From the NCBI GenBank assembly GCA_037381725.1, contig JARRQQ010000001.1:1-35857 (forward strand): 35,857 bases of DNA, given 5' to 3'. Positions 3,145 to 23,194 of this stretch are shown here, piece by piece. Within the stretch, counting starts at the first letter, position 1; every line of letters starts with the position of its first letter. The notes under the pieces were generated by a model. The model made no database searches, had not been told where the DNA came from, and was given only the letters and a program-made list of their open reading frames with translations. The position numbers were made by a program, and so were the translations under genes. The DNA is from Sedimentisphaerales bacterium (GTDB lineage: Bacteria; Planctomycetota; Phycisphaerae; Sedimentisphaerales; Anaerobacaceae).

Positions 3145-3193
3145 TTGACGGTGAATGGCAAACCCAAATGTGAATCTGGAAAGGACTAATGTA

Positions 3194-3799: not shown

Positions 3800-3800
3800 T

Positions 3801-6144: not shown

Positions 6145-6164
6145 AGGAGAATCGAAGAGAAGAC

Positions 6165-6974
6165 ATGACTCGGATACATCCCAGCGCGGTCATTCATGAA
6201 AACGCCCGGCTGGCCGAGGGCGTGATCGTCGGGCCGAATTGTATGATCGGCGCCGACGTGTCCATCGGTGCCGGAACGAGGCTTGACGCCAACGTCGTCA
6301 TCGACGGGCAAGTCAGCATTGGCCGGAATAATCACTTCTTTCCCAACTCTGTGATCGGGTGCCGTCCGCAGATTCTGCGTCTGACGCCCGGCACGCCGAT
6401 CGGCGCGGTTGCCATAGGGGACGGCAACGTCTTTCGCGAGCACGTGACCATCCACCCGGGTATGCACCCGGGCTCGTGGACCAGGGTCGGATCAGAGAAC
6501 TTCCTGATGGTGAGCGTGCACATCGGGCACGATTGCATTTTGGAAGACAAGATTGTGATGAGCAATCTCGTGCAGATCGGCGGGCATTGCAAGATCGAAA
6601 CGGGCGCCTGGTTCAGCGGCTTGGCGGGGTCGCACCAGTTTGTGACCGTCGGCAAGTGGTGCTACGTGGCGGGCTTGGCCGGGCTGAACAGGGACGTGCC
6701 CCCGTTCCTGACGGTCAGTGGGCATTATCCGCTGAAGGTGCGAGGGGTCAACAAGCGAGGTCTGGTTCGAGCCGGACTGAACGAGGAGCAGCAGCGGAAC
6801 ATCTTCGAGGCGCACAAGAAATTGTACCGCCGGTCGGGCTCGCTGCTCGACAACGCCAGGAAGCTGGCCGAGCAGGATGGACTCGATGAAAACGTTCGAG
6901 CCATCGTCGATGCGATCATCAACAGCAGCCGGCATCAGTTCGGCAGACACCTGGAGACGTTCAGAGAACATTAG
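6165..6974 (+). CDS. lpxA: Acyl-ACP--UDP-N-acetylglucosamine O-acyltransferase LpxA
   Basis: IHPSAVI start, hexapeptide beta-helix, conserved GHDC and GG..KI segments, and a helical C-terminal domain. AAGGAG lies upstream of the ATG. Confidence 0.92.
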   Translation: MTRIHPSAVIHENARLAEGVIVGPNCMIGADVSIGAGTRLDANVVIDGQVSIGRNNHFFPNSVIGCRPQILRLTPGTPIGAVAIGDGNVFREHVTIHPGMHPGSWTRVGSENFLMVSVHIGHDCILEDKIVMSNLVQIGGHCKIETGAWFSGLAGSHQFVTVGKWCYVAGLAGLNRDVPPFLTVSGHYPLKVRGVNKRGLVRAGLNEEQQRNIFEAHKKLYRRSGSLLDNARKLAEQDGLDENVRAIVDAIINSSRHQFGRHLETFREH

Positions 6975-7048
6975 TCACCGGAGCCACCGGTGCTTTGGCG
7001 GCCAGGCTCAAAACATGGAGTCGGATCGGCCGCCGGTTAGGACACTAC

Positions 7049-8080
7049 ATGGAAGATGACAAGATACGGGTCGCGGTGGTCGGCGCGGGCAAGATGGGCA
7101 CGATACACGCGAAGGTCTATACGCAGCTTCCTCAGTGCGATCTGGTCGGCGTGGTCGATATCGACGCCAAGAAAGCCCGGCGTCTGGCCGAACGCTCGAG
7201 CTGCCCCGCCTATACCGATTGCGAGGACATTCTGGACAAGGTCGATGCGGTCACCATCGCGACTCCCACAGTCACTCATCTGAAACTGGCGAGGACATTC
7301 ATCAAGAACAAAATCGCCGTGCTGGTTGAAAAGCCGTTGGCCGTGAACGTCAGAGAAGGCAAGAAGATCGTCGCTCTCGCCAGGCGAAATGACGGCGTCG
7401 TGGCGGTGGGTCATTCCGAGCGTTGCAACCCCGTCGCCCAGGCCATCAAACGGCTCGACATCAAGCCGAAGTTTATCGACGCCGACCGCATCAGTCCGTA
7501 TCCGTTCCGCTCGACGGACGTCGGCGTGGTGCTGGACGTGATGATCCATGACATCGACATCATCTTGTCCCTGGCGGCCAGCAAGATCAAGAAAGTGGAT
7601 GCCGTCGGCGTCAACGTCGTCGAGGACAAAGAAGACATCTGCAATGCGCGGATTGTCTTCGAGAACGGCTGCATCGCCAATATGACCGCTTCGAGGCTCG
7701 CCCTCAAAACCGAGCGGCGCGTCAGAGTGTTCAGTCGTCAGGCGTACCTGAGCGTGGACTACCTCAAAAAGAGCGGCATTCTGATCAAGGCCGATCCGAA
7801 CATCAACGTCCTCAAGTGGATTCAGGAGCATAAAGAGGCAGGGGACTTCGACCTGACGAGCGTGAACTGGCCCGACCTGCTGCACATCGAGCAGCTCGAC
7901 ATAGGCGACAAGGAACCGATCCGCCTGGAGCAAGAGGCGTTCCTTAGGGCCGTGACGGATAGAGCGCTCAGACCCGAGGTGAGCGCCGAAGAGGGGCTGG
8001 CGGCGCTGGAATGCGCCCAGAAGATTCTGACCTCTGTCAGGAAGCACAAGTGGCACGAGAAGATAGGTGATGATTCGTAG
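7049..8080 (+). CDS. Gfo/Idh/MocA family NAD(P)-dependent oxidoreductase embedded in the lipid A cluster
   Basis: ATG at 7049 gives MEDDKIRVAVVGAGKMG (Rossmann GxGxxG at the N-terminus). EKPLA motif is typical of the family. The ORF-track start at 6995 adds an implausible basic extension. Confidence 0.8.
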   Translation: MEDDKIRVAVVGAGKMGTIHAKVYTQLPQCDLVGVVDIDAKKARRLAERSSCPAYTDCEDILDKVDAVTIATPTVTHLKLARTFIKNKIAVLVEKPLAVNVREGKKIVALARRNDGVVAVGHSERCNPVAQAIKRLDIKPKFIDADRISPYPFRSTDVGVVLDVMIHDIDIILSLAASKIKKVDAVGVNVVEDKEDICNARIVFENGCIANMTASRLALKTERRVRVFSRQAYLSVDYLKKSGILIKADPNINVLKWIQEHKEAGDFDLTSVNWPDLLHIEQLDIGDKEPIRLEQEAFLRAVTDRALRPEVSAEEGLAALECAQKILTSVRKHKWHEKIGDDS

Positions 8081-10269: not shown

Positions 10270-13137
10270 ATGGCCAGACGAATAGAAAAAGCGATCAGGA
10301 TCACCGGCGCCGCCGAGCATAATCTCAAGAATATCAGTTTGAGCATCCCGCGCGACAAGCTGGTGGTCATTACCGGCATCAGCGGATCGGGCAAGAGCTC
10401 GCTGGCGTTCGATACGATTTACGCCGAAGGGCGTAGAAAATACGTCGAGTCGCTCAGCGCCTACGCCCGGCAGTTCCTAGAACAGATGCAAAAACCGGCC
10501 GTCTCGGAGATTACGGGACTTCCGCCGACCATCGCCATCGAGCAACGAAGCGCCAGTAGCAATCCCCGTTCGACGGTCGCAACGACCACGGAGATTTACG
10601 ACTATTTCCGCGTGCTTTTCGCGCGTGTGGGCCAGCCGCACTGCTGGGTTTGCGGCAAGGAGATTTCCAGCCAGCACTCCTCACAAATCGTCGAATCCAT
10701 TCTCTCCCGGCCGGAAGGCACGAAAATCCAGGTCTGCGCTCCGCTGGTCCGCGGCAAAAAGGGCGAGCACAAAGACGTCTTCGCGGCCATCCAGCGTGAA
10801 GGCTTCGTCCGGGTTCGCGTCGACGGCTCGACTTGCGACGTGCGGACTGTCCCGGCGCTGAACAAGAACAAGAAGCACGACATTGCGGCGGTCGTTGATC
10901 GGTTGATTATCAAACAGGGAGTTCGCACCCGCCTGGCTGACTCCGTGGAGACGGCGTTGAAGCTGGCCGAGGGTATCCTTCTGGTCCTGCTCCAGGAACC
11001 CCGCGCCGACAAGCACAACGGCGGCGATGGGCGCTGGGAGGAGGCCATTTACAGCGAGAAATTTGCCTGTCCCGAGCACCCGCAAGCGAGTCTCGAAGAG
11101 CTTTCACCCAGGCTATTTAGTTTCAACAGCCCTTACGGCGCCTGCAAAAGCTGCGATGGCCTCGGAACCATCCTCGAGTTCGACCCCGAATTGATTGTGC
11201 CTGATAAGAGCGTCTCGCTCGAAAACGGCGCAATCGACGCCTGGCGCAAAGGCGGCAAGAGAATGAACATTTTCTATAACCGCCTGGTCAAGCGGTTCTG
11301 CCGGAACACGGGCATCAGCAAGTCCGTCCCATTCGAGCAAATCCCGCAGCAATATAAGAGGATTCTGATGTACGGCACGACCGACGAGGACGAGGACAAA
11401 TACGGTGTGGTGTTCGAGGGCGTCATTCCGAACCTCCTCCGCCGATGGGAGAACACGACCAGCGAATATGTCAAAACCCGGTTGAGCGGCTATCTGTCGC
11501 ATCAGCCCTGTCGAAGCTGTGGGGGCGCCCGGCTGCGTCCCGAGGCCATCGCCGTAACCATCGGAGGCAAGAATATCCACGATCTGACGGCCCTGAGCAT
11601 CGAGAACGCGCAGTCGTTCTTCGGCCGACTGAAGCTGGACGAGGAGAAGACCGTGATCGCCGCGGCGGTGCTCAAAGAGATCAAAGCCCGCCTCAAATTC
11701 ATGTTCGACGTCGGACTCGGATATTTGACGCTGGACCGCACGAGCAGCACGCTGGCCGGCGGTGAAGCCCAGCGAATCCGCCTAGCCACGCAGGTCGGCA
11801 GCGGCCTGGTCGGGGTCTGTTACGTGCTCGACGAACCGACCATCGGCCTGCACAAACGGGACAACGACCGCCTCCTGGGCATATTGCGGAGGCTCAGCAA
11901 GCTCGGCAACACGGTCATCGTGGTCGAGCACGACGAAGACATTATCCGTAGCGCCGATCACATCGTCGATATCGGCCCAGCCGCCGGCGCGCATGGCGGC
12001 GAGGTCGTCGCACAAGGCACTTTGAAAGACATTATCAAATGTGAAACCTCGCTGACCGGCGAATACCTGAGCGGCAAAAAAAGCATCGAGCTACCCTTAA
12101 AAAGAAGACGCTACAATCTGAGAAAAAGTATCGAAGTCAAGGGCGCGGCTGAGAATAACCTCAAGAGCATCGACGTCAAGTTCCCGCTGGGCGTCTTTAC
12201 GTGTGTGACCGGCGTCTCCGGCTCGGGCAAAAGCACCCTCGTCAGCGAAATCCTGCTCAAAGCCCTCAAACGCCGGCTCTACCAGTCCCGCGAAAAGCCC
12301 GGCGCACACAAGAACATTCTCGGCACGTCATTGATCGACAAGGTAATCGAGATCGACCAGTCGCCGATCGGCAAGACGCCTCGAAGCAACCCGGCTACGT
12401 ACACGGGTGCTTTCGATCTGATCAGGAAACTGTTCAGCATGACGCGGGAGTCGAAGATTCGAGGCTACAAGCCCGGGCGGTTCAGCTTCAACGTCAAAGG
12501 CGGCCGATGCGAATCGTGCAAAGGCCAGGGCACGAAAAAGATCGAGATGCACTTTTTGCCCGACGTCTACGTCACCTGCCAAAGCTGCAAGGGCACGCGA
12601 TATAACCCGGAGACCTTGGCCGTGACGTATAAAGGCAAGAATATCGCCGACGTGCTCGATATGCGGATCGACGACGCCCTGAACTTCTTTGCTAATTTCC
12701 CGGTCATCGTACGGATTTTGCGGACACTGGCGGATGTCGGGCTGGGCTACATGCAGTTGGGCCAGCCCTCGACGACCCTCTCCGGCGGTGAAGCCCAGCG
12801 GGTCAAGCTCTCCGCCGAATTGGGCAAAGCCGCGACCGGGCACACGCTATATATTCTCGATGAGCCAACGACGGGATTGCACTTTGCCGACATTCACAAC
12901 CTCCTGAACGTGCTCCAGCGGCTGACCGATTGCGGCAATACCGTCGTCGTTATCGAACACAACCTTGATGTGATCAAGATAGCGGATTATATTATAGACC
13001 TCGGCCCTGAAGGCGGAGAAGCCGGCGGCACCGTCGTCGCAGCCGGCACGCCCGAGGAGATTACGAAAAACAAGAACAGCTTTACGGCCAAGTTTCTGAA
13101 GGCCAAACTCGCAGAGGGCAAAACGCCGGACAGGTAA
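10270..13137 (+). CDS. uvrA: Excinuclease ABC subunit A
   Basis: ITGAAEHNLKNI...VITGISGSGKSSLAFDTIYAEGRRKYVESLSAYARQFL. Two ABC modules (second Walker A GVSGSGKST, signatures LSGGEAQR x2) and Zn-finger Cys pairs. 955 aa. Confidence 0.97.
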   Translation: MARRIEKAIRITGAAEHNLKNISLSIPRDKLVVITGISGSGKSSLAFDTIYAEGRRKYVESLSAYARQFLEQMQKPAVSEITGLPPTIAIEQRSASSNPRSTVATTTEIYDYFRVLFARVGQPHCWVCGKEISSQHSSQIVESILSRPEGTKIQVCAPLVRGKKGEHKDVFAAIQREGFVRVRVDGSTCDVRTVPALNKNKKHDIAAVVDRLIIKQGVRTRLADSVETALKLAEGILLVLLQEPRADKHNGGDGRWEEAIYSEKFACPEHPQASLEELSPRLFSFNSPYGACKSCDGLGTILEFDPELIVPDKSVSLENGAIDAWRKGGKRMNIFYNRLVKRFCRNTGISKSVPFEQIPQQYKRILMYGTTDEDEDKYGVVFEGVIPNLLRRWENTTSEYVKTRLSGYLSHQPCRSCGGARLRPEAIAVTIGGKNIHDLTALSIENAQSFFGRLKLDEEKTVIAAAVLKEIKARLKFMFDVGLGYLTLDRTSSTLAGGEAQRIRLATQVGSGLVGVCYVLDEPTIGLHKRDNDRLLGILRRLSKLGNTVIVVEHDEDIIRSADHIVDIGPAAGAHGGEVVAQGTLKDIIKCETSLTGEYLSGKKSIELPLKRRRYNLRKSIEVKGAAENNLKSIDVKFPLGVFTCVTGVSGSGKSTLVSEILLKALKRRLYQSREKPGAHKNILGTSLIDKVIEIDQSPIGKTPRSNPATYTGAFDLIRKLFSMTRESKIRGYKPGRFSFNVKGGRCESCKGQGTKKIEMHFLPDVYVTCQSCKGTRYNPETLAVTYKGKNIADVLDMRIDDALNFFANFPVIVRILRTLADVGLGYMQLGQPSTTLSGGEAQRVKLSAELGKAATGHTLYILDEPTTGLHFADIHNLLNVLQRLTDCGNTVVVIEHNLDVIKIADYIIDLGPEGGEAGGTVVAAGTPEEITKNKNSFTAKFLKAKLAEGKTPDR

Positions 13138-13141
13138 TCTG

Positions 13142-15790
13142 ATGTGGGAATTTCGACTGCGTACAATCGACGATCTGGAGCAAATGAACAAACGGCTCGG
13201 TCTGGCGGTCAAAGCCAGACGGGACGTCTCGATCCTGGCCGAGCCTGTGCGGGCTGGGAACCTGGTGATACCGAATTCGTTGGCGGTGCACCCGATGGAG
13301 GGTTGCGATGGCGATTCACAGGGCCGGCCGGGAAAGCTCACGCTCCGGCGATACGAGAGATTTGCCGCCGGCGGCGCGGGGCTGATCTGGGGCGAAGCGA
13401 CCGCCGTCGTTCCCGAGGGCAGGGCGAATCCGAGGCAACTGTGGATTCACGACAAGAGCAAGGATAGCTTCGCCGCGATGGTGAAGATGATGCGCCGGGC
13501 GGCCGCCGAGAGTATGGGGCCGGACCACAAGCCCGTCATCGTAATGCAGCTAACGCATTCAGGCCGATACAGTAAGCCGGAAGGCGTTGCTCAGCCGATG
13601 ATTCCTCAGCGCGATCCGCACCGTGATCCGCTCATCCCGCAACGAGAACCTAATCTGAACGTCAAGAGCAGAATACCGGACGATTGGCCTCTCGTGACGG
13701 ACGAGTACCTCGACCGGCTCCAGGAAGCGTATGTCGAGGCGGCGAAAATCGCCTTCGACATCGGATTCGACGCCGTCGATATCAAGTCGTGTCACGGGTA
13801 TCTCATCAATGAGCTTTTCGGCTGTCGGGGTAGAGAGGGCAAGTACGGCGGCTCCTTCGAGAACCGGACCCGGTTTCCGCTCGAAGTCATCGACAAGATT
13901 CGCAAAGCGCTGGGCGAAGACGTCCCGGTGACAACCCGGCTCGGCGTTTTCGATGCAATTCCTTATCCTTACGGCTGGGCCGTTGACAAGGACGATTACA
14001 CTAAGCCCGATTTGTCGGAACCGAAGAAGCTGATCGGATTGTTGGAGCAGCGCGGCGTTCGCCTGATCAATATCACTATAGCGAATCCGTATTACAATCC
14101 CCACGTAGGCAGGCCGTTCAACGATCCGATTGTAGGCGGGTATGAAGAGCCGGAGCATCCTCTCGCGGGCGTCAGCCGGCTCGTCAACATTGTAGGTGAG
14201 ATACAAAAGGAATTCCCCAAGATAGCCATGGTCGGTACGGGTTATAGCTGGTTGCGGACCCTTTTCGCCAACGTCGCCGCGGAAAACAAAGCCAATGGCC
14301 TGGTGAGCCTGGCGGGCGGCGGGCGTATGTCCTTCGCCTATCCCGATTTCGCCAAGGATATCCTCACCAAGGGCCGAATGTCCCCGGAGAAGGTTTGTAT
14401 TGCCTGCAGCGCCTGTACTCAGATCATGCGTGACGCCGGGATGGCTGGCTGCGTTGTGCGGGACAACGATGTGTACGGTCCCATCTTCGAGCGAGGCCGG
14501 ATGAGCGACAGGGAGAATCTCGCTCGCCTAGCGGCGGCGTGCCGCAAGTGCCAGGAGCCGACGTGCCAGTTGGCGTGCCCGGCGAGCGTGGATATCCCAA
14601 GATTCATCAGTCAGTTCCTGGATGGACAAGAGAAGGCTGCCTACGAAACCCTCAGAGAAACCAATATGTTCCCCGAAATCTGCGCCTGGCTGTGTCCGGT
14701 CGAGCAGCAGTGTGAAGGTCATTGCTTGCAGGGCTTCATCGGTGACATGCCGGTCCCGATTGCCGAGATACAGATGCACCTGGCCGTACAAGCCAACAAG
14801 AACGGCTGGTCGAAGCTCCGCATCCCGACCAAAAGGTCCGGTCAAAACGTGGCCGTCATCGGCGCCGGCCCCGCCGGTCTGGCCTGTGCTGCAAAGCTCC
14901 TCGAAAGTGGTCATACCGTGACACTCTTCGATGCGAATACGGAATTCGGCGGCATGATCGCTTCGGTCATCCCGCCGGACAGGCAGAGCAATTCGCTCAA
15001 GAACGAAATCGCTGCGATTTTTGCCGACGTTCCCGAGGAACGAATGGTTCTGCGCCTGGGCAAAACGCTGAGTCCTGAATTCAATCTGGATCATATTGTC
15101 AGGGAAGGATTCGACGCCGTATTTGTCGGGATGGGTCTGCCGAAATCCGTCGGTATTAGCGATGAAAATCTCGACGGTTTGTGGAATGCGATGGACTTCC
15201 TTTCGGTAGCGAAAGCGCCGGATGGTCCGGACCTCGAAGGCAAACGCGTGGCCGCTATCGGAGGCGGCAGTACCGCCATGGACGTTGCTACTACAGCCAA
15301 GCGGCTCGGCGCTAAAGACGTTTACCTTATCGATCGCCGGTCCTTCAAAGAGATGCCGGCCTGGGGCGCCGAGCGCGATAGAGCGATGAAGGACGGCGTG
15401 CACTTTTTGATTTTGACTCAGCCGCTCGGCTTTTGCTCCACAAACGGCAAGCTGACGGGGATCAAAGTCTGCCCGACCTGTTTGGGCGAGCCGGATGCTT
15501 CGGGACGCCGGAGGCCCGAGCCGGTCGAGGCGAGCGCCTACGAGCTTGATATGGATGTCGTCGTGGAGGCGATAGGCCAGGCGCCGCCGGAACGGATCGC
15601 CGAGATCCTGCCGGGACTGGCGCTGAAAAACGGTCTGATCGAGACAAGGCAAGGCACGTCCGCGACGTCGAGGCCGGGTGTGTTTGCGGGTGGTGACTTG
15701 GTTCGTGGGGCCTCGACGGTGGTCGCCGCGGTGGCGGACGGCATGGCGGCCGCGAAGGAGATGGACGAGTTTTTGAAACAGGGACAATAG
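13142..15790 (+). CDS. Fusion flavoenzyme: OYE-like FMN TIM-barrel + Cys cluster + GltD/PreT-like Fe-S and FAD/NAD(P)H module (enoate / 2,4-dienoyl-CoA reductase-like)
   Basis: N-terminal half has OYE motifs (HPMEG, QLTHSGR, CHGYLINELF) and CIACSACTQ. The middle has CRKCQEPTCQLACP and CPVEQQCEGHC. The C-terminal half has VAVIGAGPAGLACA, VAAIGGGSTAMDVA and VFAGGDLVRGASTVV. The start is 4 nt after the uvrA stop; M15 at 13184 is an alternative start. Confidence 0.85.
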   Translation: MWEFRLRTIDDLEQMNKRLGLAVKARRDVSILAEPVRAGNLVIPNSLAVHPMEGCDGDSQGRPGKLTLRRYERFAAGGAGLIWGEATAVVPEGRANPRQLWIHDKSKDSFAAMVKMMRRAAAESMGPDHKPVIVMQLTHSGRYSKPEGVAQPMIPQRDPHRDPLIPQREPNLNVKSRIPDDWPLVTDEYLDRLQEAYVEAAKIAFDIGFDAVDIKSCHGYLINELFGCRGREGKYGGSFENRTRFPLEVIDKIRKALGEDVPVTTRLGVFDAIPYPYGWAVDKDDYTKPDLSEPKKLIGLLEQRGVRLINITIANPYYNPHVGRPFNDPIVGGYEEPEHPLAGVSRLVNIVGEIQKEFPKIAMVGTGYSWLRTLFANVAAENKANGLVSLAGGGRMSFAYPDFAKDILTKGRMSPEKVCIACSACTQIMRDAGMAGCVVRDNDVYGPIFERGRMSDRENLARLAAACRKCQEPTCQLACPASVDIPRFISQFLDGQEKAAYETLRETNMFPEICAWLCPVEQQCEGHCLQGFIGDMPVPIAEIQMHLAVQANKNGWSKLRIPTKRSGQNVAVIGAGPAGLACAAKLLESGHTVTLFDANTEFGGMIASVIPPDRQSNSLKNEIAAIFADVPEERMVLRLGKTLSPEFNLDHIVREGFDAVFVGMGLPKSVGISDENLDGLWNAMDFLSVAKAPDGPDLEGKRVAAIGGGSTAMDVATTAKRLGAKDVYLIDRRSFKEMPAWGAERDRAMKDGVHFLILTQPLGFCSTNGKLTGIKVCPTCLGEPDASGRRRPEPVEASAYELDMDVVVEAIGQAPPERIAEILPGLALKNGLIETRQGTSATSRPGVFAGGDLVRGASTVVAAVADGMAAAKEMDEFLKQGQ

Positions 15791-15805
15791 ATGAGGATTT
15801 AGAAA

Positions 15806-16603
15806 ATGGCAGAGCGACTCGTAGCAATCGTCACCGGAGCAAGCCGGGGCATCGGAAAAGGCATCGCAATGGAGCTGGCCTCGTTGGGTTTCGACCTCGT
15901 GATTAACCACTTCGACTTTACGAGCGACGGCAAGCCGGACGACTCGCGTGCGGCTGAGACACAAAAGGAGATCAAGGCACTCGGCGGTGAATGTGAGAGT
16001 CTGCGAGGGGACATCAGCCGGGCTGAGGATCGTGATAAGCTCGTTGCGCTGGCTAAGAGCAAATTCGGCCGATGCGATATGCTGGCCAATAACGCGGGCG
16101 TGGCGCCGTCGAAACGAATGGATCTTCTTGAGGCTACCGAAGAGAGTTTCGACAGAGTGATGAGCATCAATCTCAAAGGGCCATACTTTCTGACTCAAAA
16201 GGTAGCGAATTGGATGATCGAGCAAAAGAAAGCGCATCCTGAGCGAGGATACCGGATCGTAAGCACGGGGTCCATCTCGTCGTACACCAGTTCGCCGGCA
16301 CGCGGGGAGTATTGCGTCAGCAAGGCCGGGATTTCGATGATGACCAAACTGTATGCGGACCGGTTGGCGGAATACGGTATCGGCGTATTCGAAGTCAGTC
16401 CCGGCATTATTGCCACCGACATGACCAGCGTGGTCAAGGACAAGTACGACAAGCTGATCGCAGAGGGCTTGACGCCGATTAAGCGGTGGGGCCAGCCGGA
16501 GGATATCGGCAAAGCCGTCGGGGCTATCGCCGAGGGCCGGCTCGATTTCTCCACCGGTCAGGTCATTAACGTCGACGGTGGCTTTCATCTTAGAAGATTG
16601 TAG
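15806..16603 (+). CDS. Short-chain dehydrogenase/reductase (KduD/FabG-like)
   Basis: TGASRGIG cofactor motif, NNAG, and catalytic S...YCVSK (YxxxK). 265 aa. Confidence 0.88.
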
Positions 16604-16612
16604 GGAGGCAAA

Positions 16613-17398
16613 ATGGATATCAAGGGCACGATCACCACGCTATTAAGAGATGGCTTCATTCTGGTCTTTAACCAGGATAAGCTCGACGTCGTCAAAACGG
16701 CTGAAGCGCTCGTCAAAGCCGGTGTCAACAATATGGAGGTGACGTGCCGAATCAAGCAATCCCTGGAGAAGCTGTCCCGGCTGCGCAAGGCGCTGCCCGA
16801 TTTTGCGACGGGGGCGGCCAGCCTCATCGACTCGCCCGCAATGCTGAAAGTATACAACAATGCCCACCCGGAGGACCCGTTGCCCTCGGTCGATCAGGTC
16901 GTTGAGGCCGGGGCGTGCTACCTTGTCTCGGCGGTGAACTTCAGTGACGCGGGCTTCGAGAAATACGCCGGGCGGATTCCTATGATCCCTGGATGCGGAA
17001 GCGCCAGCGAGATCGTCAGCCAGTTCTCCAAGGGAGCAAACCTCTGCAAGATATTCCCAGCTAAGCAGCTTGGCGGACCGGCCTTTGTCAAAGCCATTGA
17101 CCCGGCGATTCACAAGACCATCAGCCTTGTGCCCACGGGCGGAACAAATGCAGGCAATATTCCTGACTACGTTGAGGCGGGCGTTCTGGTCCTGGGCGGC
17201 TCGTTCAGCATGATCGAGAAAGCCACGATGAAGAAGATCATCGACGAGCAAGACTACGGTCTTCTGGCTGACGAGCTCACGAAAATAAAACAGCTCATCG
17301 ACAAAGCGCGGGCCGAGAAATATCCCGACATGGACTTCGCCTCGGCGTCAGTTGAACAGATCAGCCAGGCCACGGGGAGGAATTTCAATGCGAGCTAA
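16613..17398 (+). CDS. KDPG/KHG (Eda-family) class I aldolase-like protein with a C-terminal extension
   Basis: Eda-like landmarks: MEVT, VSAV, PGCGSASEI, KIFPA (Schiff-base Lys context) and PTGG. About 50 aa longer than typical Eda. GGGAGG lies upstream of the ATG. Confidence 0.72.
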   Translation: MDIKGTITTLLRDGFILVFNQDKLDVVKTAEALVKAGVNNMEVTCRIKQSLEKLSRLRKALPDFATGAASLIDSPAMLKVYNNAHPEDPLPSVDQVVEAGACYLVSAVNFSDAGFEKYAGRIPMIPGCGSASEIVSQFSKGANLCKIFPAKQLGGPAFVKAIDPAIHKTISLVPTGGTNAGNIPDYVEAGVLVLGGSFSMIEKATMKKIIDEQDYGLLADELTKIKQLIDKARAEKYPDMDFASASVEQISQATGRNFNAS

Positions 17399-18878
17399 CA
17401 ACATCGGCAGAGAATCTGCCCATCCTACGATGTTCATTGCAGTCGTTGTCATATTGTCGCTAATAGTGACGCCATTGTGCGGAAAGGTAGAAGCTGCCTC
17501 CGGGGCACTGACTCTCAATAAAAAAGACACAGGCTATCGCGGCATCTGGTACATGAACCAGCCGTCCGGGGACGAATATGTCTACAAATACAGTGGCGGG
17601 CTGGGAACCTATTGTGCCAAGCACAAGCCGTTCGCCGTCTATTGCGACGAAGTCAAGAAGACCTTCTTTTGTTACGGCGGCACAACGAAGGACAGCGACC
17701 GAAAACTGCTCCACATGGTCTCGTACTACGACCACAGGACGGGGATGGTACCACGGCCGACTATCCTGCTCGATAAGAAGACCAGCGACGCGCACGACAA
17801 CCCGGTCATCTCCGTCGATGATGAAGGGTATATTTGGATATTCTCCACGTCGCACGGTACGTCGCGGCCTTCGTATATCCACAAGAGCCGCAAGCCCTAC
17901 AATGTTGATGCATTCGACCTCGTGAATCCGACGAAGATCGAGAACGGCAAAGACGTTCCGATGACCAACTTCTCGTACATGCAGTCTTGGCACGTCAAAG
18001 ATAAAGGCTTCGTTTGTTTTTTCACACGCTATAATTACCCCGCCGCCCGCACGATCTGTTTCATGACAAGTCCGGACGGTGTCAAATGGTCGCAGTGGCA
18101 GCGCCTGGCAGCCATTGATATGGGGCATTACCAGATCAGTGCTGCCGGGAAGAACAAGGAAGGGTCGGCATTCAACTACCATCCGACGCCCAAGGGACTC
18201 AATTGGCGGACGAATTTGTACTACGTCGAGACTGGCGATCTTGGCAAGACGTGGAGCAGCGCAGGCGGACGCAACCTGGAGCTTCCACTGACGAAGCCTC
18301 AGAATCCCGCCCTGGTGCATGACTATCAGGCTGAGGGTCTGAACGTCTATCTGAAAGATATTCGCTTCGATAGCCAAGATCGGCCCGTGATTCTTTTTAT
18401 CACGAGCAAAGGGTATGAGTCCGGCCCCAAGAACGACCCGCGCACCTGGACGACGGCCCGCTGGACCGGTGCGACGTGGCAGATTCGTCCGGCTTGCGTC
18501 TCGGACAACAATTACGACATGGGCTCGCTGTACATCGAGGACGACGGGACGTGGCGGATCATCGGTCCGACGGAGAGGGGACCGCAGCCGTACAACCCGG
18601 GCGGTGAGATGGCGATGTGGATCAGCCACGACGAAGGGGCGTCCTGGACGAAGGCCAGGCAACTCACCAGGAACAGTCCGTTCAATCATACATACGCCCG
18701 GCGCCCGGTTAACGCTCATCCTGACTTCTATGCTATCTGGGCAGACGGGCACGGCAGAAAGCCGTCCAAGTCGTCGCTCTATTTCTGCGACAAGCAAGGA
18801 AACGTCTATGTCTTGCCGCGAGAGATGATCGGCGATTTAGCACGACCGAAGCTGCTGGAACAACCGTCAGACAGATAA
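17388..18878 (+). CDS. Secreted BNR/Asp-box beta-propeller-like protein
   Basis: ATG at 17388 is preceded by GGGGAGG and overlaps the aldolase stop by 11 nt. Signal peptide MFIAVVVILSLIVTPLCGKVEAAS. Asp-box-like motifs TSPDGVKW, TGDLGKTW, SHDEGASW and EDDGTW. Confidence 0.75.
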   Translation: MRANNIGRESAHPTMFIAVVVILSLIVTPLCGKVEAASGALTLNKKDTGYRGIWYMNQPSGDEYVYKYSGGLGTYCAKHKPFAVYCDEVKKTFFCYGGTTKDSDRKLLHMVSYYDHRTGMVPRPTILLDKKTSDAHDNPVISVDDEGYIWIFSTSHGTSRPSYIHKSRKPYNVDAFDLVNPTKIENGKDVPMTNFSYMQSWHVKDKGFVCFFTRYNYPAARTICFMTSPDGVKWSQWQRLAAIDMGHYQISAAGKNKEGSAFNYHPTPKGLNWRTNLYYVETGDLGKTWSSAGGRNLELPLTKPQNPALVHDYQAEGLNVYLKDIRFDSQDRPVILFITSKGYESGPKNDPRTWTTARWTGATWQIRPACVSDNNYDMGSLYIEDDGTWRIIGPTERGPQPYNPGGEMAMWISHDEGASWTKARQLTRNSPFNHTYARRPVNAHPDFYAIWADGHGRKPSKSSLYFCDKQGNVYVLPREMIGDLARPKLLEQPSDR

Positions 18879-18919
18879 TCTAAACGATCGATGTGCGATT
18901 CGCTCAATGGGAGAAAGAG

Positions 18920-20956
18920 ATGACGCAGACAAAACAGATTGCCAACCAAACCGTAACCTTCCATTGCCATAACACGATCATCGTCGGCTCCGGCGCCGCG
19001 GGTATGAACTGCGCCGTGCATCTGTGCGAGTTCATGGAGCAGAAAGGCGTCGCAAATCCCGCCGAGAGGATCGCTGTCGTCACCGCCGGGCTGGGACTGG
19101 GCGCCTCGCGGATGAGCGGCTCGGACAAGCAGACGTATTACAAGATCGGCACCAGCCCGGACGTTCCCGACAGCGCGGAGGAGTTTGCCAAGAGCCTCAC
19201 CGCCGCGGGTTGTTGTCACGGCGATTCGGCATTGATTGAGGCCATCGGCTCGCTGCGCGAATTTTACCACCTGGTCCAGGTGGGCGTGCCATTCCCCACG
19301 GATTCGATGGGAACCTTTATCGGCTACAAGACCGACCACGACCCGTTCGAGAGAGCGACGTCGGCCGGACCGAAAACCAGCCGGTTCATGAGCGAGTGCT
19401 TGCAAAAGCAGCTCGGACGCTATGGCGTCAGCATTTACGATCAACAGGAAGCTGCGCGCTTGCTAACACTCGGCTCTGGCAAAGACAAGCGCATTGGCGG
19501 CATTGTCACGATAGACAAGAATCGTCTCGCCGAATCGGACGATGCCGTCAACGTGTTCCTGGCCTCCAATATCGTCCTTGCCGCCGGCGGGCCGGGCGAG
19601 CTGTTCAAAACCAGCGTTTACCCCAGGGACCAGTTGGGTATCCACGGACTTGCTTTCAAAGCGGGGCTGATCGGGGCGAACCTGACCGAATCGCAGTTCG
19701 GCCTGGCGAGCATCAAGTTTCGTTGGAACGTCTCGGGCACGTATATGCAGGCGGTGCCGCGACTTTTCAGCACCGACGCCGACGGCCAGGACGAGCAGGA
19801 GTTTCTCACGGGCTTCTTCCCCTCGATGAGCAAGATGGCCACGAACATCTTTCTCAAGGGGTATCAGTGGCCCTTCGATCCGCAGAAGATCGAGAACCTG
19901 CAATCCTCGTTGATCGACATCTTAGTCTTCAACGAAACGCAAAAGGGCCGGCGGGTTTATATGGACTTTCTCCACAATCCCGTTGGTAGTGATTCGATGG
20001 AGGAATTCGACATCGACAAGCTCGAACCGGAGGCCAAAGAGTACCTCAAGAAAGCCGGAGCGCTGCAAAAGACGCCCATCGAACGGCTGGCCCACATGAA
20101 TCCTCCCGCTATCGAAATCTACAAAGAGAACGGCATCGACCTGTACTCAGAACCGCTTGAGATCGCGGTCTGCGCGCAGCACAACAATGGCGGCTTCGCC
20201 GTGAACAAGTGGTGGCAATCCAATATCCCGCAGACGTTTGTCATCGGTGAAATGGCGGGCACGCACGGTGTCAAGCGGCCGGGCGGCTCGGCCCTCAACG
20301 CCGGCCAGACCGGCGGGCTTCGTGCCGCCGAATATATCGTCAACGTGTGCGGCTGCGAAGTACCGGATTATTCGGGCAAACAATCCGAGATCGACCAGCA
20401 AATCAGCGAGTGTATCGCCGGCATCGAACAGCATAAAGGCTCGTCCGGCTTGCCGGCCACAAACGTTTTGGAGCAGATCCGAAGCCGAATGACCGCCTCC
20501 GGGGGACATATCCGGGAATTCAAGGACGCTCAACGAGCATTAGAAGAAGCTGTGAAGCTTTACAAAGGCATCAAAGCCAAGGGCGTGTCTTCAACAGGCG
20601 CCAAAGGCCTTGTTGCCGCGATACAAGCTGAGCATCTGGCGCTGACCAGCGTGGCTTATCTCAAGGCCGTGGTGGAATTGCTCGGTCAGGGCAGCGGATC
20701 GCGCGGCTCGCATCTTGTGCTGGCCGAAGACGGCGTTGAAATCCACCCCGACGTGATCGACAAAGCGACCGGTAAACCACTAAAGTTCAAGCCCGAGAAC
20801 CAGTCGCTGAGGAATTCAATCCTGCAGATCGAATGCGATGAGAGTTCACCTGATCTGTTTCGCAGCACAACTGTTGAGCTGAGGCCGGCGCCGAAAGACC
20901 GCAAAGCGTTCGAGCCGGCCTGGCAGGATTATCGAGAAGGAAAGATTTACGGCTAA
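18920..20956 (+). CDS. Large FAD-binding protein of the succinate dehydrogenase/fumarate reductase/L-aspartate oxidase flavoprotein superfamily
   Basis: ATG at 18920 after GGGAGAAAGAG. N-terminal IIVGSGAAGMNCA (GxGxxG). Late GEMAGTHGVKRPGGSALNAGQTGG resembles the GE..G.HGANRLGGNSL segment of FrdA/SdhA/NadB. No signal peptide. Confidence 0.72.
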   Translation: MTQTKQIANQTVTFHCHNTIIVGSGAAGMNCAVHLCEFMEQKGVANPAERIAVVTAGLGLGASRMSGSDKQTYYKIGTSPDVPDSAEEFAKSLTAAGCCHGDSALIEAIGSLREFYHLVQVGVPFPTDSMGTFIGYKTDHDPFERATSAGPKTSRFMSECLQKQLGRYGVSIYDQQEAARLLTLGSGKDKRIGGIVTIDKNRLAESDDAVNVFLASNIVLAAGGPGELFKTSVYPRDQLGIHGLAFKAGLIGANLTESQFGLASIKFRWNVSGTYMQAVPRLFSTDADGQDEQEFLTGFFPSMSKMATNIFLKGYQWPFDPQKIENLQSSLIDILVFNETQKGRRVYMDFLHNPVGSDSMEEFDIDKLEPEAKEYLKKAGALQKTPIERLAHMNPPAIEIYKENGIDLYSEPLEIAVCAQHNNGGFAVNKWWQSNIPQTFVIGEMAGTHGVKRPGGSALNAGQTGGLRAAEYIVNVCGCEVPDYSGKQSEIDQQISECIAGIEQHKGSSGLPATNVLEQIRSRMTASGGHIREFKDAQRALEEAVKLYKGIKAKGVSSTGAKGLVAAIQAEHLALTSVAYLKAVVELLGQGSGSRGSHLVLAEDGVEIHPDVIDKATGKPLKFKPENQSLRNSILQIECDESSPDLFRSTTVELRPAPKDRKAFEPAWQDYREGKIYG

Positions 20957-20980
20957 CGTGAGTCGGCAGGGAGGACGCCC

Positions 20981-22081
20981 ATGACAGCAATCGAGATCAA
21001 ACCTGGGTCACAATGCAAATACGATATCGTCTCGCTGGGCGAGATTATGATCCGCCTGGACCCGGGTGAGGAGAGAATCCACACAACCCGGCATTTTCGT
21101 GCGTGGGAAGGCGGCGGCGAGTACAACGTCGCCCGAGGTCTCAAGCGATGTTTCGGCAAGCGGGCCGCGGTTGTTACCGCGCTGGTGAATAATCCTGTCG
21201 GGCGATTGCTCGAGGACTTGATCTATCAAGGCGGCGTCAGTATGGAGTACGTCAAATGGGTGCCGTACGACGGGATCGGCCGGAAGGTCAGGATCGGCTT
21301 GAACTTCACCGAACGCGGCTTCGGCGTTCGGGCCGCCGTGGGTTGCTCGGACCGTGCTAATAGCGCCGCGTCCCAGTTGAAGAAAGGAGACATCAACTGG
21401 GAGAGAATCTTCGGACAGGACGGGACTCGTTGGTTCCATACGGGCGGGATATTCGCGGGCTTGTCCGAAACGACGCCGGACGTAATCCTTGAAGCCGTGA
21501 AAACCGCAAAAGAACACGGCACAATCGTCTCCTACGATTTGAACTATCGCAAGTCGCTCTGGCAGGATATTGGAGGGCAAGAAAAAGCCAGGCAGGTTAA
21601 CCGGGCCATTGCTCCCTACGTGGACGTGATGTTAGGCAACGAGGAGGATTTCACGGCGGCCCTCGGATTCGAGGTCAAGGGCATGGACAAAGGCTATTCG
21701 AAGCTCGATCCCGCGAATTTCAAGAAGATGATCGTCGAGGTGGTCAAGGAATTTCCCAACGTGAAGGCCGTTGCCACGACGCTGCGAAACGCTAAGACAG
21801 CCTCGGTCAACGACTGGGGGGCGATTCTGTATACGCAGGGCGAATTCCACGAAGCGACCCTGAGGCCCGATCTGGAAATCTACGACCGGGTCGGAGGCGG
21901 TGACAGCTTTGCCTCCGGCCTGATCTACGGCTTGATGGAAGGCAAGACGCCGGCAGAGGCCGTCAACTACGGCGCCGCTCACGGCGCCCTGGCCATGACC
22001 ACACCGGGCGACACAACCACAGCCAGCCTGCGCGAGGTCGAAAGGGTCATGGGAGGCAGCGGCGCCAGAGTCGATCGATAG
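20981..22081 (+). CDS. PfkB-family sugar kinase (2-dehydro-3-deoxygluconokinase-like)
   Basis: N-terminal IVSLGEIMIRL, GGGEYNVA, and C-terminal DRVGGGDSFASGLIYGL (PfkB signature 2). GGGAGGA lies upstream of the ATG. Confidence 0.85.
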   Translation: MTAIEIKPGSQCKYDIVSLGEIMIRLDPGEERIHTTRHFRAWEGGGEYNVARGLKRCFGKRAAVVTALVNNPVGRLLEDLIYQGGVSMEYVKWVPYDGIGRKVRIGLNFTERGFGVRAAVGCSDRANSAASQLKKGDINWERIFGQDGTRWFHTGGIFAGLSETTPDVILEAVKTAKEHGTIVSYDLNYRKSLWQDIGGQEKARQVNRAIAPYVDVMLGNEEDFTAALGFEVKGMDKGYSKLDPANFKKMIVEVVKEFPNVKAVATTLRNAKTASVNDWGAILYTQGEFHEATLRPDLEIYDRVGGGDSFASGLIYGLMEGKTPAEAVNYGAAHGALAMTTPGDTTTASLREVERVMGGSGARVDR

Positions 22082-22111: not shown

Positions 22112-23194
22112 ATGATTGTTCAAGCGGTCAAGTGGATTGGCGGCATTGACGGGTATTTGGAGCTGGTCGATCAGCGTCGGCTGCCGGTAGAGTTCGTGAT
22201 GCTGCATTGCCGCGATGTCGAGGTTCTTTTTGATGCGATCAGAACACTTGCCGTTCGCGGCGCCCCAGCCATCGGAGTTTCCGCTGCCTACGGTCTTGTC
22301 CTCGGCCTGCAAAAGCTGGACGCAAATGATGATGCCAAAAAGGCGTTGGAATCGCTCACAAAAGCCCGTGAATATTTGGCCTCGTCCCGCCCTACAGCGG
22401 TGAATTTGTTCTGGGCGTTGGATAGGATGCAAAAAAAGGCGGAGGAAGTGTCGCGGGCATCCTGCCCGCGATCCGAGGGCGAGACGCCCTCGACACTACA
22501 GGCATTTCGAGAGGCGGTTTTGGCAGAGGCCGAAGCCATCCACCAGGAAGACGTGGATATGTGCCGGCGAATCGGTGAAATCGGTCAGAAGTTTATCGAA
22601 GAGGGCGCCGGGGTCCTAACACATTGCAACGCCGGAGCGCTGGCGACGGGGGGGCAGGGAACGGCTCTTTCAGTACTGTTTGAAGCACACAAGAAGGGCA
22701 GGAAGTTCAGAGTCTACGCCGATGAGACTCGGCCGTTGTTGCAAGGTGCTCGATTGACGGCCTGGGAGTTGCAGCAAGCGGGAATAGACGTGACGGTCAT
22801 TTGTGACAATATGGCGGGGTGGCTGATGAAAGAGGGAAAGGTCAATGCCGTGATCGTGGGCGCCGACCGCATCGCGGCCAATGGCGATACGGCCAACAAG
22901 ATCGGTACTTACAGCCTGAGCATTCTTGCCCGCGAGCATGGCGTGCCGTTTTATATCGCGGCGCCCTCCAGCACGTTCGACCTCAGCATCGAAAGCGGGG
23001 CCGAGATACCTATCGAGCAACGGAACCCTGAGGAAGTGACCTCATTTGGTAATACCCAAACTGCTCCCACGGGTGTCAACGTGTACAATCCCGCGTTCGA
23101 CGTGACCGAAGCGCGCGACATCACCGCCATTATCACCGAACGAGGCGTCATCGAAAAACCCGATGCCGAGCGGGTCTCCAACCATCTTGCTTGA
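22112..23194 (+). CDS. mtnA: S-methyl-5-thioribose-1-phosphate isomerase (eIF-2B alpha/beta/delta-like)
   Basis: RPTAVNLFWALDRM, THCNAGALAT, VYADETRPLLQGARLTAWEL, VGADRIAANGDTANKIGTY and NPAFDVT motifs. Confidence 0.88.
   Translation: MIVQAVKWIGGIDGYLELVDQRRLPVEFVMLHCRDVEVLFDAIRTLAVRGAPAIGVSAAYGLVLGLQKLDANDDAKKALESLTKAREYLASSRPTAVNLFWALDRMQKKAEEVSRASCPRSEGETPSTLQAFREAVLAEAEAIHQEDVDMCRRIGEIGQKFIEEGAGVLTHCNAGALATGGQGTALSVLFEAHKKGRKFRVYADETRPLLQGARLTAWELQQAGIDVTVICDNMAGWLMKEGKVNAVIVGADRIAANGDTANKIGTYSLSILAREHGVPFYIAAPSSTFDLSIESGAEIPIEQRNPEEVTSFGNTQTAPTGVNVYNPAFDVTEARDITAIITERGVIEKPDAERVSNHLA

Follow-up and report, generated by a model that had tools for sequence, protein, structure and literature searches.

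The subject of this report is a run of six genes in a 35,857-nucleotide stretch of DNA from a Sedimentisphaerales bacterium (assembly GCA_037381725.1, contig JARRQQ010000001.1, positions 1 to 35,857; hereafter the window). The genes occupy positions 13142–22081 of the plus strand, as delimited by open reading frame (ORF) calls and reading of start sites. They encode an Old Yellow Enzyme (OYE)-type flavoenzyme fused to a GltD/NfnB-like module, a short-chain dehydrogenase/reductase (SDR), an Eda-family aldolase, a propeller protein, a large FAD flavoprotein and a PfkB kinase. Comparison across genomes shows a conserved core that comprises an OYE-type FMN/[4Fe-4S] protein, an SdhA/NadB-like FAD protein and an SDR of the PRK12745 type. 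This core is usually accompanied by a PfkB kinase resembling 2-keto-3-deoxygluconate (KDG) kinase and by an aldolase of the KDPG (2-keto-3-deoxy-6-phosphogluconate) type, the two being fused in some phyla. We put at about 45% the probability that this cluster is the form taken, in one lineage, by a widespread and uncharacterised module for the catabolism of an acidic sugar or of a carboxylate resembling a sugar. A preliminary description, made from the sequence alone, had proposed an undescribed catabolic pathway; its domain calls agree with Pfam and NCBIfam (Oxidored_FMN, Fer4_20 and Pyr_redox_2, SDR, KDPG/KHG aldolase, BNR_4, FAD_binding_2 and PfkB; KHG, 2-keto-4-hydroxyglutarate).

The core was defined from a synteny set made up of the best 80 loci and three earlier ones, onto which the window proteins were mapped and in which all ORFs were clustered. 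Neighbour counts refer to genes within 4 kb of the flavoprotein gene in the 48 loci flanked by 3 kb or more on each side. Some labels of metagenome-assembled genomes (MAGs) seem unreliable (several Sedimentisphaerales-like contigs are labelled Pirellulales) and phylum counts are approximate. An SDR of the PRK12745 subfamily lies near the flavoprotein gene in 36 of the 48 loci and an OYE-like gene in 31; 26 loci have both, and 41 have one or the other. PfkB is found near the flavoprotein gene in 21 loci and Eda in 19. The same six genes, followed by a gene for an MtnA-type isomerase, stand in identical order in three loci (L001–L003). In other phyla five of the six recur together. The OYE/FAD/SDR trio occurs under the labels Planctomycetota, Armatimonadota, Aminicenantes, Clostridiaceae, Halanaerobiaceae and Zhuqueibacterota, and the clustering also holds in Bacillota-labelled MAGs; the flavoprotein of the five-gene sets, as of the trio loci, is 43–60% identical to that of the window. 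Such an arrangement is far beyond chance. A lack of any co-localisation of the three unusual genes in other genomes had been named as a result that would refute the proposal. On this point it is not refuted: the OYE-like and flavoprotein homologues do co-localise across phyla. The propeller is present in only 5 of the 48 loci.

A different reading of the conservation was rejected. Identities of 73–89% to more than 100 database clusters (flavoprotein, propeller) might be taken for housekeeping function under high constraint, but they reflect dense sampling of the clade, since UvrA is 89% identical between the window and L002 and the cluster proteins are 78–88% identical.

Profile evidence places the flavoprotein, whose gene is the module's signature, on a divergent branch within the SdhA/FrdA/NadB superfamily, which bears out its earlier description as an FrdA/NadB-like protein of about 680 aa. 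As a single sequence it gives a weak match to Pfam FAD_binding_2 (PF00890) over aa 28–468. A family profile built from 43 diverse members finds NadB (1chu, 1.7e-29) and SdhA/FrdA (1e-25 to 1e-27) in the PDB; the matches fall in two stretches, the C-terminal part included, and both the FAD_binding_2 fold and the C-terminal helical domain of the superfamily are recognised. The best NCBIfam score to the succinate dehydrogenase (SDH), fumarate reductase (FRD) and aspartate oxidase equivalogs is 82 bits against cut-offs of 450–860. The capping region (about aa 254–390) is not alignable to NadB, SdhA or FrdA and the position of NadB H244 is a glycine. In the homologue alignment the covalent-FAD histidine is absent, the flavin-attachment region reading G-A-S-R-M-S-G-S-D-K-Q. 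Among the capping-domain, covalent-FAD and active-site residues tested, only the equivalents of NadB H351 and R386 are retained, as H421 and R453. The family is large: a full HMMER pass over 50%-identity representatives gives 469 clusters (E<1e-30), and a profile scan of one genome per species finds relatives in at least 595 species-representative genomes. At present it goes only by the label 'FAD-binding protein' or by misleading ones: 'succinate dehydrogenase/fumarate reductase flavoprotein subunit', '2,4-dienoyl-CoA reductase' or '3-ketoacyl-ACP reductase'.

The OYE-type member of the core corresponds to the N-terminal half of gene 1. Pfam recognises Oxidored_FMN at aa 34–272 (PF00724, 100.7 bits), Fer4_20 at aa 456–555 and Pyr_redox_2 at aa 569–867. 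In the PDB, aa 30–280 match OYE-family ene-reductases (about 1e-22 to 1e-26), and aa 462–878 match Thermotoga NfnB end to end (4ylf_B, 6.9e-77), as well as GltD and the N-terminal part of dihydropyrimidine dehydrogenase (DPD). The sequence K215-S-C217-H218-G-Y220-L is kept in 17 diverse homologues of the OYE half, and C419, C422, C425 and C437 are all present in 16–17 of 17 aligned homologues from several phyla. This C-x2-C-x2-C-x11-C motif is of the type found in OYE-family Fe-S flavoenzymes (FadH, BaiCD, BilR). The bilirubin-reductase N-domain model of NCBIfam aligns over aa 32–439, and the order of TIM barrel and four-cysteine motif is that of the Fe-S OYE family. Scores to characterised members are low (at best 104–116 bits against equivalog cut-offs of 750–825). 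The substrate-binding histidine pair of these enzymes reads Lys215/His218, and the usual FadH-type C-terminal FAD/NAD(P)H domain is replaced by GltD/NfnB with Fer4_20 or, in other phyla, is absent.

The 882-aa fusion had been presented as a C=C reductase architecture. The architecture stands, but only its OYE half is conserved with the cluster, the GltD half being specific to the lineage. In distant loci tblastn aligns aa 1–455 of the window protein and nothing further (44–48% identity), and full-length matches of 880 aa are confined to a few places (Sedimentisphaerales-type loci, L029, L037, L056), homologues in Sedimentisphaerales MAGs being 77–99% identical. Elsewhere the OYE-like protein stands alone, is about 445 aa long and has no nicotinamide-binding domain. 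The GltD half had also been considered as the conserved partner; the tblastn result shows this to be wrong. The C-terminal 420 aa nonetheless align end to end with DPD, NfnB and GltD as a standard NADPH module which, as in DPD, is joined to an FMN TIM barrel. Unlike DPD, the domain order is reversed and the barrel is OYE-type rather than DHO_dh-type, and gene 1 misses all NCBIfam equivalog cut-offs by a wide margin.

The two flavoproteins had been suggested to carry out redox chemistry in place of the usual isomerase and dehydratase steps. They are probably one redox system rather than successive steps of a pathway, because a natural OYE–FAD fusion exists, the two genes abut by a few nt in Aminicenantes, the 4Fe-4S motif is invariant, and reductases offer a precedent. 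The fusion, P0379, is a protein of 1084 aa (positions 8001–11255 of L084; GCA_964351455.1, CAYGOU010000022.1) whose OYE/Fe-S domain is 40% and whose flavoprotein part is 42% identical to the window proteins. Its gene sits between one for a xylose-isomerase-like TIM barrel and an SDR gene, with an SSF transporter and a DegT aminotransferase upstream. As for the precedent, cytoplasmic NADH:fumarate and NADH:acrylate reductases take electrons from NADH on an OYE-like domain and reduce an alpha,beta-unsaturated carboxylate on FAD_binding_2 (10.1101/2022.01.20.477176).

Comparison with the NADH:fumarate, acrylate and cinnamate reductases (Klebsiella FRD, Vibrio harveyi acrylate reductase (ARD), Vibrio ruber Crd), which combine an OYE-like domain with FMN_bind as well as FAD_binding_2, reveals both a likeness and clear differences. 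The module likewise pairs an OYE-like protein with a carboxylate-binding FAD_binding_2 protein, by adjacency and, in P0379, by fusion. It falls outside their family: no FMN_bind was detected in the module, which has the invariant 4Fe-4S motif instead, and the FAD protein, which is of SdhA/NadB length and on a different branch, has a helical domain at its C-terminus and a capping domain that is novel. In addition, the OYE part is here also fused to a GltD/NfnB module, and the genomic context is one of a sugar-acid kinase and aldolase rather than respiration. As we read this comparison, the likeness to Klebsiella FRD and Vibrio ARD is one of working principle and not of family membership.

The two flavoproteins would then act together as one electron-transfer enzyme. 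NAD(P)H would, in this genome, be oxidised on the fused GltD/NfnB-like module, and electrons would pass through two [4Fe-4S] clusters to the cluster and FMN of the OYE domain and from there to the FAD protein, whose conserved His/Arg pair would bind a carboxylate and whose flavin would reduce the alpha,beta C–C bond of a sugar-type carboxylate or, in the reverse direction, oxidise it. That the probable substrate is a carboxylate is what the H421/R453 pair (kept in E. coli too) and the adjacent tripartite ATP-independent periplasmic (TRAP) transporters of L058 and E. coli point to.

The strongest competing explanation has the flavoprotein work as a NadB-like dehydrogenase. It would oxidise C2 (hydroxy or amino) or the C2–C3 bond in a deoxy or amino sugar acid, generating the 2-keto group on which kinase and aldolase depend, and electrons would leave to NAD(P)+ through the OYE-Fe/S and GltD-like parts instead of entering there. 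L-aspartate oxidases are indeed the closest solved relatives by profile (1.7e-29), the family shares with NadB the lack of a covalent-FAD histidine, and DegT-type aminotransferases recur near the flavoprotein gene. In one Synergistota locus (L058) a TRAP transporter, the FAD protein, IclR, PfkB and Eda form an operon with neither SDR nor OYE, such that a single flavin step seems enough to supply kinase and aldolase. Against this, GltD/NfnB-like modules usually deliver electrons from NADPH, the characterised enzymes that combine OYE-like and FAD_binding_2 domains are reductases, and the flavoprotein has a glycine at the position of NadB His244 and a different capping domain. We consider the dehydrogenase unlikely.

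The third member of the core, the SDR, is assigned by model score to the PRK12745 subfamily: it passes NCBIfam NF009386 with 329.9 bits (cut-off 250), and its Aminicenantes orthologue likewise passes PRK12745. The label 'KduD-like' given to it earlier does not hold as a specific assignment. The SDR reaches only some 146 bits where the KduD models require 339–369 (TIGR01832, 145.6 against 338.85; NF005390, 146.8 against 369), and no KduI or UxaC-type gene that would associate it with KduD was found in the window or in 83 related loci. By subfamily and by neighbourhood it is a core partner of the flavoprotein.

The aldolase and the kinase are more conventional. Gene 3 scores 86.6 bits against a cut-off of 27.8 for Pfam PF01081, and in alignment with the Zymomonas KDPG aldolase 4bk9 it keeps ExTxR (MEVTCR), the Schiff-base lysine (CKIFPA) and the phosphate-binding PTGG and GGS; its score to TIGR01182 is below the cut-off (103.3 against 156), consistent with a 17-aa insertion. 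By these residues it is an Eda-family class I aldolase of the KDPG/KHG type with an intact catalytic site. Gene 6 has the PfkB fold (PF00294, aa 15–347, 94.9 bits against 25.8). Among NCBIfam models it is closest to NF041633, 'KHG/KDPG aldolase/sugar kinase fusion protein', in which it matches the kinase half (4.9e-87), and next to the Haloferax-type KDG/2-keto-3-deoxygalactonate (KDGal) kinase (3.8e-42). Scores for the KDG/KDGal kinase equivalogs lie below their cut-offs (NF041332, 144.8 against 440; NF040938, 71.2 against 400; NF052444, 31 against 400), and we regard it as a putative PfkB sugar-acid kinase, KDG/KDGal-kinase-like.

That both enzymes are part of the module is supported by their position behind the core. 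On an Aminicenantes chromosome (CP070750.1; L072, 12817–14568) Eda and PfkB are fused in a protein of 583 aa, which passes NF041633 with 946.9 bits (cut-off 700), and the fusion lies directly behind OYE-FAD-SDR in L072, L053 and L056. Because it always does so, the NCBI family NF041633 belongs to the same uncharacterised module. The Synergistota operon and a Rhizobium locus with kinase and aldolase genes (see below) add to the case.

In the reading that we favour, the SDR would adjust one carbonyl or hydroxyl to give an acid of the 2-keto-3-deoxy-hexonate type, which PfkB would phosphorylate and the Eda aldolase would cleave to pyruvate and triose phosphate. The kinase and aldolase had been named as terminal steps from the outset, and the NCBIfam matches and intact catalytic residues support this. 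The likeness to the KDG funnel (KduI/KduD or 4-deoxy-L-erythro-5-hexoseulose uronate (DEH) reductase, KdgK, KdgA/Eda) lies in the PfkB kinase of KDG/KDGal type, the class I KDPG-type aldolase, the presence of an SDR and, in this lineage, a propeller of a lyase family. The module departs from it in several respects. No KduI, UxaC, UxuA or UxaA was found in the cluster or the 36-kb window, confirming the earlier report that isomerase and dehydratase are missing; the SDR is from PRK12745 and scores below the KduD thresholds; and the place of conserved partners is taken by two flavoproteins, to which no described uronate route assigns a role. The closing steps are those of the classical KDG funnel, whereas the redox front end is undescribed. 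Searches of solved structures, curated families and the literature, the last extending to flavin-dependent uronate metabolism, the name of the fusion protein and KDG in Sedimentisphaerales, gave no match to the gene combination and no characterised pathway, in line with the claim that the gene set is not a described pathway. That a composite reductase running from the GltD/NfnB-like module through the OYE-type to the SdhA/NadB-like protein takes the place of hexuronate isomerase and dehydratase chemistry, as an undescribed flavin/Fe-S route, is a more tentative proposition, to which we would give rather less credence than to the module itself. Routes that lead from uronates, aldonates or inositol to a 2-keto-3-deoxy acid by way of one ene-reduction were drawn up, and no scheme was clearly better than the others.

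A possible link of the substrate to uronates is suggested by the fold and two conserved histidines of the propeller, by nearby GH28 genes (within 4 kb in three Phycisphaerae-type loci, L018, L021 and L046) and by the intact aldolase residues. The preliminary description had found no recognisable glycoside hydrolase or lyase domain at the locus, but the propeller is itself of such a kind. It scores 61.8 bits against 27.3 for Pfam BNR_4, the family that holds polysaccharide lyase family 25 (PL25) ulvan lyases, the PL42 L-Rha-alpha-1,4-GlcA lyase and glycoside hydrolase family 145 (GH145) (PMC13193363, PMC8377490). The sole phmmer match in the PDB is the PL25 ulvan lyase 5uam. An AlphaFold2 model of moderate confidence (predicted local distance difference test (pLDDT) 68, predicted template modelling (TM) score (pTM) 0.73) retrieves 5uam/5uas first with Foldseek (2e-15; TM 0.58/0.65), and then PL42 7esn, GH145 5muk and PL24 7drq. 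The catalytic His123 and His143 of PL25 (residue roles: PMC8377490) correspond to H136 and H156, both invariant in 31 homologues. PL25 Arg204 may equal R214 with a register shift of one residue and Tyr188 falls in an insertion, neither being confidently aligned. Overall identity to PL25, PL42 and GH145 is low, at 13–17%. Judged by the model, the propeller has a recognisable carbohydrate-active enzyme (CAZyme)-type fold of the BNR_4 family, PL25/PL42/GH145-like and of the seven-bladed type. The Sec-type hydrophobic signal segment reported for its N-terminus is present; the designation as an Asp-box propeller fares less well, there being a single canonical Asp box (SHDEGASW at residue 413) in a protein classifiable as BNR_4.

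The propeller is also the least conserved member of the cluster, being found in 5 of the 48 full-flank loci (about 10%) and missing between Eda and the flavoprotein gene in many close relatives (L004, L005, L011, L013–L016 and L040). It is an accessory insert, linked to the module as an optional supplier. By analogy with PL25, PL42 and GH145 it might serve as an optional front end that works extracellularly, cutting a sugar-(1,4)-uronate linkage to provide a uronate-derived unit, which may be 4,5-unsaturated. A second context is provided by a distant operon, L083 (8225–16926), where AraC, SDR, flavoprotein, Eda, a DHO_dh-like FMN protein, BNR_4, a xylose-isomerase-like TIM barrel and a D-2-hydroxyacid dehydrogenase follow one another; the DHO_dh-like protein stands in place of the OYE-like protein, and the BNR_4 protein, 63% identical to the window propeller, has no signal peptide. 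Since it is better conserved than the L083 flavoprotein (43%), there is a hint of lateral transfer of the propeller.

The presence of a lyase-like propeller raises the question of whether an ordinary unsaturated-uronate route would account for the genes. The propeller would act as the lyase, the SDR would reduce DEH or 5-keto-4-deoxyuronate (DKI) to KDG as in alginate degraders, PfkB and Eda would finish, and the two flavoproteins would be a separate, redox-balancing reductase of the enoate or fumarate type that happens to lie in the same gene run. Propeller, SDR, PfkB and Eda are formally sufficient for the sequence from unsaturated uronate through DEH and KDG to KDPG known from the alginate pathway; reductases of simple enoates built from OYE and FAD_binding_2 domains exist; and the unrelated UvrA and MtnA genes are packed just as tightly as the six. 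The distribution of the genes makes this explanation improbable, more so than the dehydrogenase. The SDR subfamily tracks the flavoprotein and not the lyase (36 of 48 loci, some without a propeller, and E. coli, which has neither kinase nor aldolase), in several phyla PfkB and Eda come immediately after the genes for flavoprotein and SDR, the SDR does not reach the KduD cut-offs and the propeller is the rarest member.

Beyond the loci with kinase and aldolase, the flavoprotein and SDR recur in other settings. The most accessible of these is an E. coli island flanked by ytfB and rplI, which 3126 of 5426 complete genomes of the species carry. Its order is TetR, PRK12745-type SDR, sugar-phosphate isomerase/epimerase (TIM barrel), enoyl-CoA hydratase, CoA-transferase and a 690-aa FAD-binding protein, followed by a TRAP QMP or a major facilitator superfamily (MFS) transporter; examples are E. 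coli OHT76-1 (L085, NZ_CP135245.1 179692–188615) and the uropathogenic strain UPEC 536 (L086, NZ_CP158445.1 4342246–4349665). The E. coli flavoprotein is 36% identical to that of the window over 97% of its length and has all signature motifs, the His/Arg pair included; the SDR, from the same subfamily, shows 41% identity along its full length. Unlike the window cluster, the island has no OYE-like gene, kinase, aldolase or propeller, and carries a CoA-transferase and a hydratase. No report of function was found in the literature on the island or its protein accessions. Bacillus sp. V3-13 has its FAD and SDR genes beside those for a CoA-transferase, an enoyl-CoA hydratase and an acyl-CoA dehydrogenase. 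On plasmid pRCCGE532c of Rhizobium sp. CCGE532 (L087, NZ_CP032691.1 688655–694014), a Gfo/Idh/MocA oxidoreductase, the flavoprotein (35% identical), a sugar kinase and a 'fructose bisphosphate aldolase' lie near ATP-binding cassette (ABC) transporter genes, an ending reminiscent of the IolC/IolJ type. Because the contexts differ in E. coli, Bacillus sp. V3-13 and Rhizobium, the flavoprotein family probably covers more than one substrate.

Recurrent neighbours in the synteny set are MFS and SSF transporters, xylose-isomerase-like TIM barrels, URO-D-like proteins, DegT aminotransferases and a protein of the 3-keto-disaccharide-hydrolase family, an assortment that fits keto-sugar or cyclitol chemistry too. 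A cyclitol or other keto-sugar substrate, with an SDR or Gfo-type enzyme oxidising a ring hydroxyl, a TIM barrel dehydrating or eliminating, the flavoenzyme reducing the enone and an IolC/IolJ-like kinase and aldolase pair cleaving the opened chain, would draw on the TIM barrels (upstream in 8 of 48 loci, L083, L084 and E. coli), the adjoining 3-keto-disaccharide-hydrolase family gene (L031, L047, L048), the recurring DegT aminotransferases, the secondary IolC matches of the kinase (2.5e-31) and the Rhizobium locus with its Gfo/Idh/MocA, FAD protein, sugar kinase and FBA-type (fructose bisphosphate) aldolase, but it is the least credible of the alternatives, given that the window cluster has no TIM-barrel gene, that its Eda-type aldolase requires a 2-keto-3-deoxy acid, that the His/Arg pair and TRAP transporters suggest a carboxylate and that the kinase is closer to KDG/KDGal kinases than to IolC.

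A number of observations weigh against the proposed sugar-acid module itself. Neither SDR nor OYE lies near the FAD gene in 7 of the 48 loci, a pattern shown by most Armatimonadota and Sumerlaeota loci; therefore the flavoprotein family is probably not monofunctional. The E. coli island lacks kinase and aldolase, and since CoA enzymes adjoin the FAD and SDR genes there and in Bacillus sp. V3-13, these lineages point to CoA-thioester chemistry rather than a KDG funnel; the Rhizobium aldolase, for its part, is annotated as fructose-bisphosphate type and not Eda. The P0379 fusion is found in two assemblies only. The AlphaFold2 model of the flavoprotein, made with 33 close homologues, has a pLDDT of 46, and its active site is read from alignments only. 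Free unsaturated uronates convert to DEH or DKI unaided, and a flavin reduction of an unsaturated uronate is therefore not obviously needed. Within the window's own cluster there is neither a transporter nor a regulator. Lastly, the limits of the unit are blurred. From gene 1 to gene 6 the junctions are, in turn, gaps of 15 nt and 9 nt, an overlap of 11 nt, and gaps of 41 nt and 24 nt; 4 nt lie between the end of UvrA and gene 1, and MtnA begins 30 nt past the kinase gene. The tight spacing that had suggested one operon is real, but UvrA and MtnA are joined equally tightly in what amounts to an eight-gene run, and spacing alone cannot delimit the functional unit. Nor does a consensus scan define the boundaries with UvrA and MtnA: promoter-like sites (7 against 5.7 expected from shuffled sequence) and terminator-like sites (14 against 15.5) do not rise above background.

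The coordinates of the cluster and of other features of the window are given below. The arrangement of six plus-strand coding sequences with these gaps and overlap, as first described, was confirmed exactly by the ORF calls and the ATG starts at 17388 and 18920, which the N-termini of homologues back; those of the flavoprotein begin at the same M-x-T-K-Q-I-A-N-Q as the window protein.

Table. Positions of the six genes, of the parts of gene 1 and of surrounding features in the window.
Feature	Position (nt)	Strand	Basis or remark
Gene 1, OYE-type/GltD-NfnB-like fusion, 882 aa	13142–15790	+	ORF, Pfam
Gene 1, OYE-type FMN/[4Fe-4S] half, aa 1–455	13142–14506	+	Part conserved beside the flavoprotein gene across phyla
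Gene 1, predicted [4Fe-4S] motif C419-x2-C422-x2-C425-x11-C437	14396–14452	+	Homologue alignment
Gene 1, GltD/NfnB-like NAD(P)H-FAD-2x[4Fe-4S] half, aa 456–882	14507–15790	+	Lineage-specific fusion partner
Gene 2, SDR, 265 aa	15806–16603	+	ORF, Pfam
Gene 3, KDPG/KHG (Eda-family) aldolase, 261 aa	16613–17398	+	ORF, Pfam
Gene 4, BNR_4 propeller, 496 aa	17388–18878	+	ATG start behind GGGGAGGAA
Gene 5, FAD flavoprotein, 678 aa	18920–20956	+	ATG start behind GGGAGAAAGAG
Gene 6, PfkB kinase, 366 aa	20981–22081	+	ORF, Pfam
UvrA	10270–13137	+
MtnA-type isomerase	22112–23194	+	TIGR00512, 448.6 bits
Outer-membrane/lipid A block: BamA, Skp, LpxD, fused LpxC-FabZ (436 aa), LpxA, Gfo/Idh/MocA	994–8080	+	Tightly packed
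ORF of 686 aa	14528–16588	-	Runs antisense to gene 1, at its end, and to the SDR gene
ORF of 259 aa	23243–24022	-
ORF of 141 aa	24382–24807	-
Carbohydrate-binding protein, probably secreted, 1259 aa	28345–32124	+	F5/8 type C, DUF1349, two CBM_4_9
Carbohydrate-binding protein, probably secreted, 859 aa	32288–34867	+	Laminin_G_3, PA14, weak Rha78A-like Ig domain

The window looks like a housekeeping stretch of a planctomycete of the Sedimentisphaerales type, and the closest named relatives of the cluster proteins come from MAGs labelled Sedimentisphaerales, Phycisphaerae or Planctomycetota. Ahead of the cluster the plus strand carries, in order, the C-terminal part of DnaB, BamA, Skp, LpxD, LpxC-FabZ, LpxA, a Gfo/Idh/MocA oxidoreductase and cyclophilin; then come endonuclease V (minus strand), UvrA, the six genes and MtnA. 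The last scores as an S-methyl-5-thioribose-1-phosphate isomerase and is probably a neighbour and not a member of the pathway. It trails the cluster in 18 loci, all of close relatives of the Sedimentisphaerales type, and does not do so in other phyla. A pathway of the 5-deoxyribose or dihydroxyacetone phosphate (DHAP) shunt kind that includes MtnA was dropped on this ground and because the aldolase class is mismatched. Past MtnA the run of plus-strand genes is terminated by the two minus-strand ORFs of 259 and 141 aa, neither of which has a match in Pfam or NCBIfam. Further downstream lie the two large carbohydrate-binding proteins; a catalytic domain was recognised in neither. Antisense ORFs resembling the one of 686 aa cluster across related loci, and this ORF has the look of a shadow that the conserved sense genes cast in G+C-rich DNA rather than of a gene.

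If the proposed module is real, mostly uncultured anaerobic degraders of polysaccharides, Sedimentisphaerales, Aminicenantes, Armatimonadota and Lentisphaerota among them, share a sugar-acid pathway that is missing from current metabolic reconstructions, and predictions of carbon flow in sediments and digesters would miss it. It would also represent a new flavoenzyme architecture, in which an OYE-type Fe-S module is connected to a subunit of the SdhA/NadB kind and an NfnB-like module may be present or absent. The core of SDR and flavoprotein extends to at least 595 species genomes, and over half of the complete genomes of E. coli carry a related island. That island is a genetically tractable entry and the most direct route to an experimental answer, and it could help to assign a function to a flavoprotein family of 469 clusters.

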